In this document: in pieces, positions 2,031-58,786 of the stretch | Layout: the number at the start of each line of letters is the position of its first letter | Numbering within the stretch: position 1 is the first letter of the stretch | From: Escherichia coli | GTDB lineage: Bacteria; Pseudomonadota; Gammaproteobacteria; Enterobacterales; Enterobacteriaceae | Reading direction: 5' to 3' (one strand) | Assembly: GCF_003334315.1 (NCBI RefSeq) | Contig: NZ_QOWR01000008.1 | DNA: 64,000 nucleotides | Program-made: the position numbers and the translations under genes | The notes under the pieces: generated by a model | What the model saw: only the letters and a program-made list of their open reading frames with translations | What the model was told of the DNA's origin: nothing | Database searches by the model: none

Positions 2031-3764
2031 GTGAATATTCAGGCTCTTCTCTCAGAAAAAGTCCGTCAGGCCATGATTGCGGCAGGCGCGCCTGCGGATT
2101 GCGAACCGCAGGTTCGTCAGTCAGCAAAAGTTCAGTTCGGCGACTATCAGGCTAACGGCATGATGGCAGTTGCTAAAAAACTGGGTATGGCACCGCGACA
2201 ATTAGCAGAGCAGGTGCTGACTCATCTGGATCTTAACGGTATCGCCAGCAAAGTTGAGATCGCCGGTCCAGGCTTTATCAACATTTTCCTTGATCCGGCA
2301 TTCCTGGCTGAACATGTTCAGCAGGCGCTGGCGTCCGATCGTCTCGGTGTTGCTACGCCAGAAAAACAGACCATTGTGGTTGACTACTCTGCGCCAAACG
2401 TGGCGAAAGAGATGCATGTCGGTCACCTGCGCTCTACCATTATTGGTGACGCAGCAGTGCGTACTCTGGAGTTCCTCGGTCACAAAGTGATTCGCGCAAA
2501 CCACGTCGGCGACTGGGGCACTCAGTTCGGTATGCTGATTGCATGGCTGGAAAAGCAGCAGCAGGAAAACGCCGGTGAAATGGAGCTGGCTGACCTTGAA
2601 GGTTTCTACCGCGATGCGAAAAAGCATTACGATGAAGATGAAGAGTTCGCCGAGCGCGCACGTAACTACGTGGTAAAACTGCAAAGCGGTGACGAATATT
2701 TCCGCGAGATGTGGCGCAAACTGGTCGACATCACCATGACGCAGAACCAGATCACCTACGATCGTCTCAACGTGACGCTGACCCGTGATGACGTGATGGG
2801 CGAAAGCCTCTACAACCCGATGCTGCCAGGAATTGTGGCGGATCTCAAAGCCAAAGGTCTGGCAGTAGAAAGCGAAGGGGCGACCGTCGTATTCCTTGAT
2901 GAGTTTAAAAACAAGGAAGGCGAACCGATGGGCGTGATCATTCAGAAGAAAGATGGCGGCTATCTCTACACCACCACTGATATCGCCTGTGCGAAATATC
3001 GTTATGAAACACTGCATGCCGATCGCGTGCTGTATTACATCGACTCCCGTCAGCATCAACACCTGATGCAGGCATGGGCGATCGTCCGTAAAGCAGGCTA
3101 TGTACCGGAATCCGTACCGCTGGAACACCACATGTTCGGCATGATGCTGGGTAAAGACGGCAAACCGTTCAAAACCCGCGCGGGTGGTACAGTGAAACTG
3201 GCCGATCTGCTGGATGAAGCCCTGGAACGTGCACGCCGTCTGGTGGCAGAAAAGAACCCGGATATGCCAGCCGACGAGCTGGAAAAACTGGCTAACGCGG
3301 TTGGTATTGGTGCGGTGAAATATGCGGATCTCTCCAAAAACCGCACCACGGACTACATCTTCGACTGGGACAACATGCTGGCGTTTGAGGGTAATACCGC
3401 GCCATACATGCAGTATGCATACACGCGTGTATTGTCCGTGTTCCGTAAAGCAGAAATTGACGAAGAGCAACTGGCTGCAGCTCCGGTTATCATCCGTGAA
3501 GATCGTGAAGCGCAACTGGCAGCTCGCTTGCTGCAGTTTGAAGAAACCCTCACCGTGGTTGCCCGTGAAGGTACGCCGCATGTGATGTGTGCTTACCTGT
3601 ACGATCTGGCCGGTCTGTTCTCTGGCTTCTACGAGCACTGCCCGATCCTCAGCGCAGAAAACGAAGAAGTGCGTAACAGCCGTCTGAAACTGGCACAACT
3701 GACGGCGAAGACGCTGAAGCTGGGTCTGGATACGCTGGGTATTGAGACTGTAGAGCGTATGTAA
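2031..3764 (+). CDS. argS: Arginyl-tRNA synthetase
   Basis: 577-aa ORF with GTG start; [14 protein letters not shown]-terminus and class I synthetase HVGH motif. Confidence 0.97.
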
Positions 3765-14691: not shown

Positions 14692-14718
14692 TTATCGGCA
14701 AGGAGGGGGGAAACTTTA
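14692..14718 (-). promoter_or_regulatory. Sigma-28 (FliA) class 3 promoter of the tar-tap-cheRBYZ operon
   Basis: Minus strand reads TAAAGTTT, 11-nt spacer, GCCGATAA: exact match to sigma-28 consensus, about 30 nt upstream of tar. Confidence 0.85.
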
Positions 14719-18224: not shown

Positions 18225-19108
18225 GCTTCCTCGGTTGTCGTCTGTTGTTGCGGATTTTTCACCGCACGCACATGCTCTTCCAGTTCAATAAACGACGGGC
18301 GTTCGCTGGAATAGAGCGTTTTGCGACCAAACTCAACGGCGATAGGCGGTGCGTAACCGTTCAGATTAGAAAGCAGAGTGACTTTGACGCACTGCATCAT
18401 TTTGCTGGTTTCGGCGCTTTTCTGACGTAAAACAGTCGCTAATGGGGAAATAAATCCGTAAGCCAATAAAATGCCGAGGAAAGTCCCCACCATCGCATGT
18501 GCGATAAGCGCACCCAGCTCGGCGGCAGGACGATCGGCTGAACCTAACGCGTGAACGACCCCCATTACAGCCGCAACAATACCAAACGCCGGAAGTGAGT
18601 CCCCGACCAGCGCCAGACTGTTCGCCGGGACTTCTGCCTCGCTTTCGTGCGTCTCAATCTCTTCATCCATCAGGGCTTCGATTTCGAAGGTGTTCATGTG
18701 ACCGCTGATAATCAGGCGCAGATAATCGACGATAAAATCAAGCATGACGCTATCCGCGAGGATGCGTGGGTAGCTGGCGAAGATCTCGCTCTCACGGGGA
18801 TTTTCAATATCACGTTCCAGCGAAAACATCCCCATCTGCCGCGATTTCGCCATCAACCGATAAAGCAGAGCCAGCAGATCCATATACATTGCTTTGGTGT
18901 ATTTGGAGCGACGAAACAGCAACGGCAGCGCCTTCAGCGTGCCTTTAATCGCTTTGCCATTATTGCCGACGATAAACGACCCAATCCCTGCACCGGCAAT
19001 AATCACCAGTTCAGCGGGTTGATAGAGTGCTCCAAGGCTTCCACCGGTCATCAAATAACCGCCGAAAACTGTACCGAGAACAACCAGGTAACCTAATAAG
19101 ATAAGCAC
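18221..19108 (-). CDS. motA: Flagellar motor stator protein MotA
   Basis: 295-aa ORF matching recalled MotA. Confidence 0.96.
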
Positions 19109-19176
19109 GACATCATCCTTCCACTGTTGACCATGACAGGATGTTCAGTCGTCAGGCGTTAACGCGCGATTGGGGC

Positions 19177-19209
19177 AAAAAAAAGCAGCGGTACGTCGTT
19201 ACCGCTGCT
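19177..19209 (-). terminator. Rho-independent terminator of the flhDC operon
   Basis: Hairpin agcagcggta/taccgctgct (19184-19209) followed on the minus strand by an 8-nt U-run. Confidence 0.75.
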
Positions 19210-19234
19210 GGAATGTTGCGCCTCACCGTATCAG

Positions 19235-19813
19235 TTAAACAGCCTGTACTCTCTGTTCATCCAGCAGTTGTGGGATAATATCGGCAGGATTCTGGGAAAG
19301 TTTACGTCTTTTTACTGCCCGGGATGGCGGTTGACATAAGCTGCAGGCAAAGCTGCCAACAGGCTGGTGAGCGTGGGTAATAAAATTGCCGCCGCAGCAG
19401 TTGCAGCTGGAAAGTTGCAGTAATCCACTTTCAACAAACCGCACCAATGTCCAGGCACGGGTTAATGCCAGCAGTGGTCCTTCTTCTGCTTGTGGGCACT
19501 GTTCAAGGTATAAACGGTAGGCTTTGATCACCGCATCGACGCCATTACACAAACCGGTTTTCAGTAAAAACTGCCATGCATTACAGAACATCGAAGCATG
19601 AACGTTTTGTTCCCAGGTCATAAACCAGTCGGTTGAGAATGGCAGCATGCCTTTCGGCGGTGGGCTTCCGCGCAGTTCTTTATAAAGTTTTATCAGGCGT
19701 CCGCGACTTAACTGTGTTTCGCTTTCCAGCATCTGCAAACGAGCGCCCAGGGTGATCAATTCCATTGCCAGCTGAATATCCCGCGCTTCCTGAACAATGC
19801 TTTTTTCACTCAT
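19235..19813 (-). CDS. flhC: Flagellar master regulator subunit FlhC
   Basis: 192-aa ORF with zinc-binding cysteines; matches recalled FlhC. Confidence 0.96.
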
Positions 19814-19815
19814 GA

Positions 19816-20166
19816 TCAGGCCCTTTTCTTGCGCAGCGCTTCTTCAGGCTGATTAACATCATTCAGCAAGCGTGTTGAGAGCATGATGCCGGTATGAATT
19901 TGCTGGAGATCGTCAACGCGGGAATCTTGCGTCAACTGAGTAATCGTCTGGTGGCTGTCAAAACGGAAGTGACAAACCAGTTGATTGGTTTCTGCCAGCT
20001 TAACCATTTGCGGAAGAGTCAGTGCCGCTAACGTTGTCGCCATTTCTTCATTTATGCCGAGACGAAACATAGCGGACGCTTTGTCCTGAACAATCAAACG
20101 CTGTGCAAGTAGTAAATATGACAAGTTGATGTCATAAATGTGTTTCAGCAACTCGGAGGTATGCAT
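19816..20166 (-). CDS. flhD: Flagellar master regulator subunit FlhD
   Basis: ORF 19816-20175; ATG at 20166 gives the 116-aa [17 protein letters not shown] form. Confidence 0.92.
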
Positions 20167-20427
20167 TATTCCCACCCAGAATAACCAACTTTATTTTTAT
20201 GCGGTTTCACCGCACCCCGTGATGTCGCCGGGAAGCCCCGGTAAAAAATAATTAGCATTAGAATAGTTGCGATAAGCTGCAATAAGCAGAACCACCTTTT
20301 TGGTTTAATATGTCCTTACAAATAGAAATGGGTCTTTACACTTATCTAAGATTTTTCCTAAATCGACGCAACTGTACTCGTCACTACACGCACATACAAC
20401 GGAGGGGGGCTGCGATTTTCAATAATG

Positions 20428-20443
20428 TGTGATGCAGATCACA
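20428..20443. promoter_or_regulatory. CRP binding site in the flhDC class 1 promoter region
   Basis: tgtgatgcagatcaca fits the TGTGA-N6-TCACA CRP consensus at the expected distance upstream of flhD. Confidence 0.7.
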
Positions 20444-20945
20444 CAAAACACTCAATTACTTAACATAAATGTATAAGTCATACTTTTGTTTTGGGTGTAT
20501 TTCAATCTGTTAAAAAGTTTTTCGCTACGCTAGCAAGCAAAAATGAAACAGGAATAATCGAAATGGGATGTTGCGCACAGTCAAAATAACTCACCGTAAA
20601 TAATCATCTGCTATAAATAATCACTTTCATTCAATACCAGATAAGCTATTTTTAAACAGACACTTACCGCACAACAAACTAATTAAATACAAAGAAAGGC
20701 AACAATCAACTTAATGTTGATGAAATGTTTTACATATATTAACCACTTGTTTAATGCGGAGAATCAGTACACTATTTTCTTATAATTACATTTGAAATTA
20801 TATGATCACCGGGAGTGATTGATTAATTGTCTTTACTAATAATCAGACTAATATTTACCTGTTTGACCGAGTTGGGATTGCGTCGTTTCTCCATTAGGAG
20901 TAAAGCTTTAATGTCACCTGAAGTTCACAGAATAAGGAACAGGTT

Positions 20946-21380: not shown

Positions 21381-24733
<3,353 letters not shown>

Positions 24734-43008: not shown

Positions 43009-43016
43009 TTATCGGC
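43009..43016 (-). promoter_or_regulatory. Candidate sigma-28 -10 element (GCCGATAA) of the autoregulated fliA promoter
   Basis: Minus strand GCCGATAA about 25 nt upstream of the fliA start; the -35 is a poor match. Confidence 0.5.
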
Positions 43017-43102
43017 ATGATTATCCGTTTCTGCAGGGTTTTTAATCGGACGATTAGTGGGTGAAATGAGGGGTTATTTGGGGGTTACCGGTAAATTGCG
43101 GG

Positions 43103-43128
43103 CAGAAAAAACCCCGCCGTTGGCGGGG
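43103..43128 (-). terminator. Rho-independent terminator at the end of the fliC 3-prime UTR
   Basis: Minus strand hairpin ccccgcc-aacg-gcgggg followed by a U-run. Confidence 0.75.
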
Positions 43129-43149
43129 AAGCACGTTGCTGACAAATTA

Positions 43150-43260
43150 CCATTCATGTTGCCGGATGCGGCGTAACGCCTTATCCGGCCTACAAAAATC
43201 TGCAAATTCAATAAATTGCAATTCACCTTGTAGGCCTGATAAGCACAGCGCACCAGGCAA
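43150..43260. repeat. REP/BIME palindromic units within the fliC 3-prime UTR
   Basis: gccggatgcggcgtaacgccttatccggcctac and ggcctgataagcacagcgcaccaggc match REP consensus in inverted orientation. Confidence 0.75.
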
Positions 43261-43301
43261 TTTGGCGTTGCCGTCAGTCTCAGTTAATCAGGTTACGACG
43301 A

Positions 43302-44688: not shown

Positions 44689-44715
44689 TTATCGTCTGGT
44701 CACTCACAACCTTTA
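44689..44715 (-). promoter_or_regulatory. Sigma-28 promoter of fliC
   Basis: Minus strand reads TAAAGGTT, 11-nt spacer, GACGATAA, about 75 nt upstream of fliC. Confidence 0.8.
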
Positions 44716-44788: not shown

Positions 44789-44815
44789 TAAACTTTACCC
44801 CGCTTACGCCGATAA
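44789..44815 (+). promoter_or_regulatory. Sigma-28 promoter of the fliDST operon
   Basis: Plus strand reads TAAACTTT, 11-nt spacer, GCCGATAA, 45 nt upstream of fliD. Confidence 0.85.
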
Positions 44816-58682: not shown

Positions 58683-58786
58683 CGTCAGAGGTAGCACCGT
58701 AATCCTCGTCTTTTCCCCGCTTTGTTGCGCTCAAGACGCAGGATAATTAGCCGATAAGCAGTAGCGACACAGGAAGACCGCAACAC

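Follow-up and report, generated by a model that had tools for sequence, protein, structure and literature searches.

Organization of the flhC-motA region

The window, by which we mean the whole stretch of 64,000 nucleotides of Escherichia coli DNA analyzed here, carries all genes relevant to the locus (flhD, flhC, motA, motB and cheA) on its minus strand. The gap between flhC and motA measures 126 nt (19234..19109) and coincides with the interval to which the initial annotation referred. Read from 5' to 3' on the minus strand, it consists of 25 unpaired nucleotides, a hairpin, a run of eight T residues and 68 nt that lead up to the GTG start codon of motA. The hairpin and T8 run confirm the terminator that had been proposed for positions 19177-19209, about 70 nt upstream of the motA start. 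The locus is almost certainly the E. coli gene motR, which encodes MotR, a small RNA of 95 nt that binds Hfq. As MotR at this site is already published and annotated, we are dealing with the recognition of a known feature and not with a discovery. The coordinates of the features are collected in Table 1.

Table 1. Features of the flhC-motA region; positions are those of the window.
Feature	Position	Strand	Remarks
flhC coding sequence	19813..19235	-	stop codon TAA 19237-19235; hosts the promoter and the first 37 nt of MotR
Sigma-28 (FliA) -35 element TAAACTTT	19304..19297	-	core TAAA 19304-19301; inside flhC; invariant in 57/57 loci
Sigma-28 -10 element GCCGATAT	19285..19278	-	overlaps FlhC codons Ala-Asp-Ile
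Transcription start (A) of MotR and motAB-cheAW	19271	-	from the 5' end of motR b4828 (1977302) and the first base of the published primer and transcript
MotR sRNA, 95 nt	19271..19177	-	nt 1-37 lie within flhC and take in its stop codon
MotR +1..+19 ACAACUGCUGGAUGAACAG	19271..19253	-	near-invariant across genera despite being coding
Seed, MotR nt 43-54 ACGGUGAGGCGC	19229..19218	-	from published mutagenesis primers and gBlocks
Published M1 mutation GUG>CAC	19226-19224	-	in the seed
Intrinsic terminator	19209..19177	-	10-bp GC-rich stem 19209..19184, 6-nt loop, U8 tract 19184..19177
Remaining motA leader, 68 nt	19176..19109	-	exists only in read-through motAB-cheAW mRNA; outside the sRNA
motA Shine-Dalgarno sequence GGAAGGA	19122..19116	-	within the 68-nt leader
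motA	GTG start 19108-19106, end 18221	-

Two further observations concern the neighborhood of flhD. The antisense RNA AsflhD (b4839), which lies opposite the 5' end of flhD, falls at 20145-20364 (plus strand) when its coordinates are transferred from MG1655. According to BLAST, the 768-bp IS1H element found upstream of flhD in MG1655 is absent at about 20464-20471, where its flanks join with an 8-nt overlap.

A sigma-28 promoter inside flhC

The initial annotation had placed the motA promoter in the 3' region of flhC, correctly as it turns out, but reported no clean TAAA-N15 match and left the promoter element open. A pattern search for TAAA-N15-GCCGATAA, in line with the sigma-28 promoter search that it had recommended, yields TAAACTTTCCCAGAATCCTGCCGATAT at 19304..19278 on the minus strand, a site with a single mismatch and the observed form TAAA-N15-GCCGATAT. 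It is situated in the last 70 nt of flhC, 44-70 nt outside the interval considered earlier. When up to two mismatches are allowed, the pattern occurs 17 times in the window against 5.5 expected occurrences, a number reached by none of 100 shuffles, and 7 of the 17 matches are known FliA sites. A scan of positions 18900-19500 for sigma-70 promoters returned none, and thus no evidence of a housekeeping promoter for motA.

Over its 28 nt, the site equals the FliA ChIP-seq entry "TAAACTTTCCCAGAATCCTGCCGATATT (flhC)motAB-cheAW" (Fitzgerald et al., 2014, PMC4183435). According to later work of the same group, the intragenic promoter of motA is conserved best among all FliA promoters, and it imposes a constraint on Ala177-Asp178 of FlhC; species without Asp178 have a FliA promoter between the genes instead (Fitzgerald et al., 2017, bioRxiv 10.1101/188474).

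Six other matches to the pattern, at 14692-14718 (-), 22510-22536 (+), 43009-43035 (-), 44689-44715 (-), 44789-44815 (+) and 58731-58757 (+), coincide with FliA sites of the 2014 study (PMC4183435), namely those of tar, otsA (intragenic), fliA, fliC, fliD and fliL. Within the part that matches, four of the six agree letter for letter with the listed entries. The other two, the fliC and fliD promoters, deviate from K-12, chiefly in their spacers.

The position of the hairpin, 25 nt past the flhC stop codon, is what would be expected for an operon terminator, and one might suppose that it serves the flhDC operon only, with motA transcribed by read-through from the flhDC promoter and without a promoter or small RNA of its own. 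Published data have already refuted this explanation, and we see practically no chance that it is right. FliA gives a ChIP-seq peak over a consensus-like motif inside flhC, motA RNA is FliA-dependent, and cells lacking flhC stay non-motile when flhC is supplied from a plasmid, because the motA promoter is lost with the chromosomal gene (Fitzgerald et al., 2014, PMC4183435). Transcription start mapping puts the 5' end of MotR within flhC, and a band of about 95 nt disappears in a fliA deletion strain (Melamed et al., 2023, PMC10578931). Moreover, the synonymous sites of the promoter are invariant in 54 species. The ChIP-seq site, the FliA-dependent RNA and the flhC deletion result all speak for an independent promoter, as the initial annotation had assumed, and against transcription by flhDC read-through alone. 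The hairpin ends both the flhDC transcripts and MotR, and is therefore a shared terminator.

Identity and extent of MotR

The sequence at 19271..19177 is an exact string match, 95 of 95 nt, to the published MotR in-vitro transcript (Supplementary file 3 of Melamed et al. 2023, eLife, PMC10578931). In the MG1655 RefSeq annotation, the ncRNA motR (b4828, "small RNA MotR") occupies 1977208-1977302 on the minus strand and overlaps the last 37 nt of flhC. As the stretch 19320..19100 is identical to the MG1655 motR region in all 221 positions, motR maps to the same 95 nt in the window. The transcription start, 7 nt 3' of the -10 element, is the first base both of the 5'-phosphorylated cloning primer SM001 and of the in-vitro transcript. 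Of the other published reagents, the Northern probe SM003 maps to 19194-19220 and the M1 gBlock to 19344-19109. Of 5426 complete E. coli genomes, 5369 contain the motR region, as judged by matches that cover at least 80% of it.

The suggestion that MotR might originate here was right with regard to the identity of the molecule, but not with regard to its placement between the terminator and motA. MotR starts inside flhC and ends at the terminator, so that only its last 58 nt fall into the interval 19109-19234. All the same, a real and functionally characterized regulatory RNA had been recognized from raw sequence, even if the terminator geometry and the reverse-strand promoter inside the gene were missed.

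For MG1655, a Northern band of about 95 nt has been described that is FliA-dependent and co-immunoprecipitates with Hfq; the promoter within flhC is common to MotR and motAB-cheAW, and the higher bands on the Northern blots were ascribed to "readthrough of the MotR terminator" (Melamed et al., 2023, PMC10578931). An Rfam 15 scan of both strands of 18500-20900 at E <= 1 gave no match, and hence detected no ligand-sensing aptamer. For MotR, the lack of an Rfam family means only that none was curated.

Comparative conservation in Enterobacteriaceae

Loci for comparison were fetched from species-representative genomes through the zinc motif of FlhC, which was searched as a degenerate DNA pattern; the motif has no relation to the promoter, some 95 nt further downstream. 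This gave 59 loci, all from Enterobacteriaceae, of which 56 extended far enough; together with the window, this made 57 sequences from 54-57 species. The genera covered include Escherichia, Salmonella, Citrobacter, Enterobacter, Kosakonia, Phytobacter, Buttiauxella, Atlantibacter, Trabulsiella, Franconibacter and Cedecea. The same-strand order flhC-motR-motA is found in all 57 loci.

TAAA-N15-GCCGATA(T/A) occurs in 57 of the 57 sequences, and at essentially one offset, which is 95 in 55 of them and 94 or 96 in three sequences that have a 1-nt indel in the A-run upstream. The promoter hexamers are invariant, and GCCGATA is so in every locus, even at the third positions of GCC and GAT, where synonymous changes would be possible. 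Conserved blocks in the alignment are formed by the hexamers of the promoter, by MotR +1..+19 and by the stem of the terminator. The motA leader is variable after the terminator, while its last ~40 nt (AUCCUGUCAU.GUCAACAG.GGAAGGAUGAUGUC) are conserved.

Could this conservation, and the promoter match itself, reflect selection on the carboxy-terminal tail of FlhC instead of selection on a promoter or an RNA? Several of the encoded residues are indeed invariant at the amino acid level. Synonymous sites tell a different story. Counting only codons whose amino acid is fixed, we find 11 invariant ones among the 12 that span the -35 element to MotR +19, compared to 0 of 25 in upstream flhC (Fisher p = 1.4e-8); in other words, the third position varies in all 25 upstream codons and in only one of the 12 that cover the promoter and the 5' end of MotR. 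Within MotR +1..+19, third-position entropy is 0 in four of six codons (CAA, CTG, CTG and CAG) and 0.31-0.51 bit in the other two (GAT and GAA). Furthermore, there is free amino acid variation in the part of FlhC that corresponds to the spacer between the -35 and -10 elements. Experimentally, the FlhC variant D178A supports motility, which, like the intergenic FliA promoters of species without Asp178, is at odds with selection on the protein (Fitzgerald et al., 2017, bioRxiv 10.1101/188474). We therefore consider protein-level selection a highly improbable explanation, and attribute the constraint to the promoter or the RNA. Our comparative results reproduce, and slightly extend, those of Fitzgerald et al. 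(10.1101/188474).

Immediately before the -35 element (aligned window positions 19306-19316), the A5 run of GTAAAAAGACG varies in length in three loci (L045 ~1169-1180, L055 ~3235-3246 on the minus strand, and L060 ~278-290), which belong to Citrobacter koseri NCTC10786, one C. amalonaticus assembly and Enterobacter sp. EA-1. One additional A, as in C. koseri NCTC10786 and the C. amalonaticus assembly, brings the TAA of the -35 element into frame and shortens FlhC by 22 residues; in Enterobacter sp. EA-1, which lacks one A, FlhC is extended. Promoter, MotR and terminator are intact in all three. The variants could be homopolymer sequencing errors or true variation in a dispensable FlhC tail.

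Terminator and RNA folding

In a terminator scan, the hairpin reads AGCAGCGGTA-ACGACG-TACCGCTGCT (19209..19184) and is followed by T8 down to 19177. By a simple scan, a hairpin and T-run precede motA in 55 of the 57 loci. The stem is well supported by comparative evidence: 97.7% of its cells in the 57-locus alignment are paired, and four pairs show compensatory changes (G-C to A-U, U-A to C-G and others). The covariation score was reached by none of 500 shuffles, and slid controls were only 20-73% paired. For MotR as a whole, the predicted fold is barely more stable than shuffled sequences (z = -1.8). Internal hairpins at nt 4-24 and 29-54, suggested by single-sequence folding, had to be discarded, as the RNAalifold consensus of the 57 sequences contains, besides the terminator, no more than an invariant stem of 3 bp. 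Within MotR, it is thus the terminator alone that has structural support.

Two other candidate structures, both specific to the read-through RNA, were considered and rejected. A long-range pairing between the flank of the MotR seed and the flank downstream of the terminator is unsupported: the 187-nt fold has a z-score of -2.7, and 62% of the cells are paired compared to 58% after sliding by one column, in a region where the alignment is unreliable. The second candidate concerns the start of motA. The UCCU at 19141-19138 (minus strand), about 20 nt 5' of the motA Shine-Dalgarno sequence, is near-invariant in 57 species, and its pairing with GGAAGGA is possible. A sequestering hairpin built on this pairing (UCCU 19141-19138 with AGGA 19119-19116, and an outer stem that reaches the GUG) nevertheless finds no support, with a z-score of -0.25 for the fold, 71% pairing that is not above shuffles, and core pairs that are invariant and show no covariation.

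Seed region and targets

The seed ACGGUGAGGCGC forms 12 bp, two of them G-U, with the published rpsJ segment GCGCUUCACUGU; rpsJ itself lies outside the window. The published change CAC>GUG in rpsJ-M1 matches the GUG>CAC change in MotR M1 (Melamed et al., 2023, PMC10578931). Among the 57 loci, 37 have GGUGUGG in the seed, including those of E. albertii, Salmonella and Citrobacter, and 19 are without GGUG[U/A]GG. The K-12-type seed GGUGAGG (19227-19221, minus strand; alignment columns 87-93) is found in the window sequence only. In E. coli rpsJ, the partner of its A is a U.

According to Melamed et al. (2023, PMC10578931), MotR pairs inside the rpsJ and fliC coding sequences and raises the levels of S10 and flagellin. 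It also raises flagella number, motility and the expression of flagellar genes and operon mRNAs in a nusB-dependent manner. As a compensatory rpsJ mutation failed to restore MotR binding in that study, the rpsJ pairing model is incomplete. For fliC, RNAduplex predictions with MotR returned implausibly long, loop-rich duplexes that do not lend themselves to interpretation. A seed-complementary stretch, GCCUCUCGCUGAUC, is located near fliC +24 in both K-12 and the window; we regard it only as a candidate.

The first 19 nt of MotR are conserved as well as the promoter, and better than the published seed, across 54 species. This stretch, which encodes the FlhC residues PQLLDEQ, might tentatively be viewed as a second functional module or as an initially transcribed signal for sigma-28 polymerase, although we would not bet on it. 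As a module, it could be an additional pairing site, or a determinant of stability or of Hfq or RNase action. Two published observations would fit a second module: MotR*, which is mutated at nt 6-8 and hence inside this stretch, is more abundant, and a second, M1-independent contact of MotR with fliC has been seen (Melamed et al., 2023, PMC10578931).

It is also conceivable that the locus acts mainly in cis, as an attenuator of motAB-cheAW, and that the 95-nt RNA is chiefly a by-product with minor activity in trans. The combination of a promoter in flhC and a terminator before motA in 55 of 57 loci would suit this idea, as would the absence of the seed from 19 of the 57. So would the situation in Pluralibacter. 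A metagenome-assembled genome of this genus (L051:6346-6557) has a promoter with the perfect consensus GCCGATAA inside flhC, and a gap of 95 nt with a different, shorter terminator (GCGGAC-TCCG-GTCCGC-T6); neither the hairpin nor the sequence that precedes it after the stop codon is related, and the MotR body shows no similarity. Here the architecture has been kept and the sRNA sequence replaced. In addition, the authors of the MotR study have themselves speculated that S10-NusB anti-termination at the motR terminator increases read-through, as a feedback switch from MotR to motAB-cheAW (PMC10578931). Yet the seed and the 5' 19 nt are conserved more than a terminator requires, as far as GGUGUGG and MotR +1..+19 are concerned. 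A chromosomal 3-nt exchange in the seed (motR-M1) reduces the number of flagella, motility and the activity of class 2 promoters, with MotR-M1 at a level comparable to wild-type MotR, and MotR expressed from a plasmid acts in trans (Melamed et al., 2023, PMC10578931). A predominantly cis-acting attenuator is thus unlikely in our view. The attenuator and sRNA roles are compatible and not mutually exclusive, and the published trans effects, together with the phenotype of the seed mutant, argue that the RNA itself acts.

A model for the motR locus

Together, the data suggest the following model for motR as the source of a trans-acting RNA. Sigma-28 (FliA) polymerase would start at A19271, from the TAAA-N15-GCCGATAT promoter embedded in flhC. 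Most of the early transcripts would stop at the shared terminator and release MotR, whereas polymerases that read through would go on to produce motAB-cheAW mRNA, which makes MotR a detached 5' part of the motA leader. The single-stranded seed (nt ~43-54) would then pair within rpsJ and fliC, as the literature indicates (PMC10578931). The identity of MotR, its promoter, its terminator and the conservation of both are observed directly in the DNA analyzed here. FliA-dependent expression, Hfq binding and the effect on flagella come from publications on MG1655, and are presumed to carry over to the present strain.

The wider importance of the locus is already known. MotR links the levels of ribosomal protein S10 to flagellar gene expression, and the motA promoter shows, in textbook fashion, how a promoter embedded in a gene constrains the coding sequence. 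Our sole, small addition is the quantification of synonymous-site constraint through MotR +1..+19, together with the covariation of the terminator, in about 57 species.

Comparison with known systems

Trans-acting RNAs that derive from leaders by premature termination include the Listeria SreA/SreB riboswitch RNAs and E. coli 5'-UTR sRNAs identified by 3'-end mapping. MotR resembles RNAs of the SreA/SreB type in that a terminated leader doubles as a base-pairing RNA that acts in trans, with read-through leading to the mRNA. It differs from them in that control of read-through has only been hypothesized (S10-NusB), and we know of no ligand-sensing aptamer for MotR.

With K-12 MotR (motR b4828, PMC10578931), the present RNA shares all 95 nt, promoter, transcription start, seed, terminator and the flhC-motA context, and there is no sequence difference between them. 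The host strain does differ from MG1655 elsewhere, as it has no IS1 upstream of flhD and its fliC 5' region is only 87.5% identical. By these sequence criteria, the strain is not MG1655, although its motR is identical.

The promoter is the same 28-nt site as the intragenic FliA promoter of motAB-cheAW (PMC4183435; 10.1101/188474), and the constraint on the Ala-Asp codons of FlhC is reproduced at synonymous sites. Those two studies treated the site as an mRNA promoter, and the sRNA product was described later.

Other sigma-28-dependent, UTR-derived sRNAs are FliX, FlgO and UhpU (PMC10578931), which share with MotR the sigma factor, the binding to Hfq and a strong 3' terminator hairpin. FliX is also located in the window, in the fliC 3' UTR at about 43106-43296 (minus strand): the stretch 43212..43106 shares 93.5% identity with the FliX-S transcript, and 43296..43275 corresponds to the 5' cloning primer for FliX. 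Two of the four sRNAs described by Melamed et al. (2023) are thus located in the window. FliX, FlgO and UhpU are derived from 3' UTRs, by processing or from an internal promoter, whereas MotR is derived from a 5' UTR by premature termination. The direction of the effect differs as well, since MotR acts positively on flagella and FliX negatively (PMC10578931).
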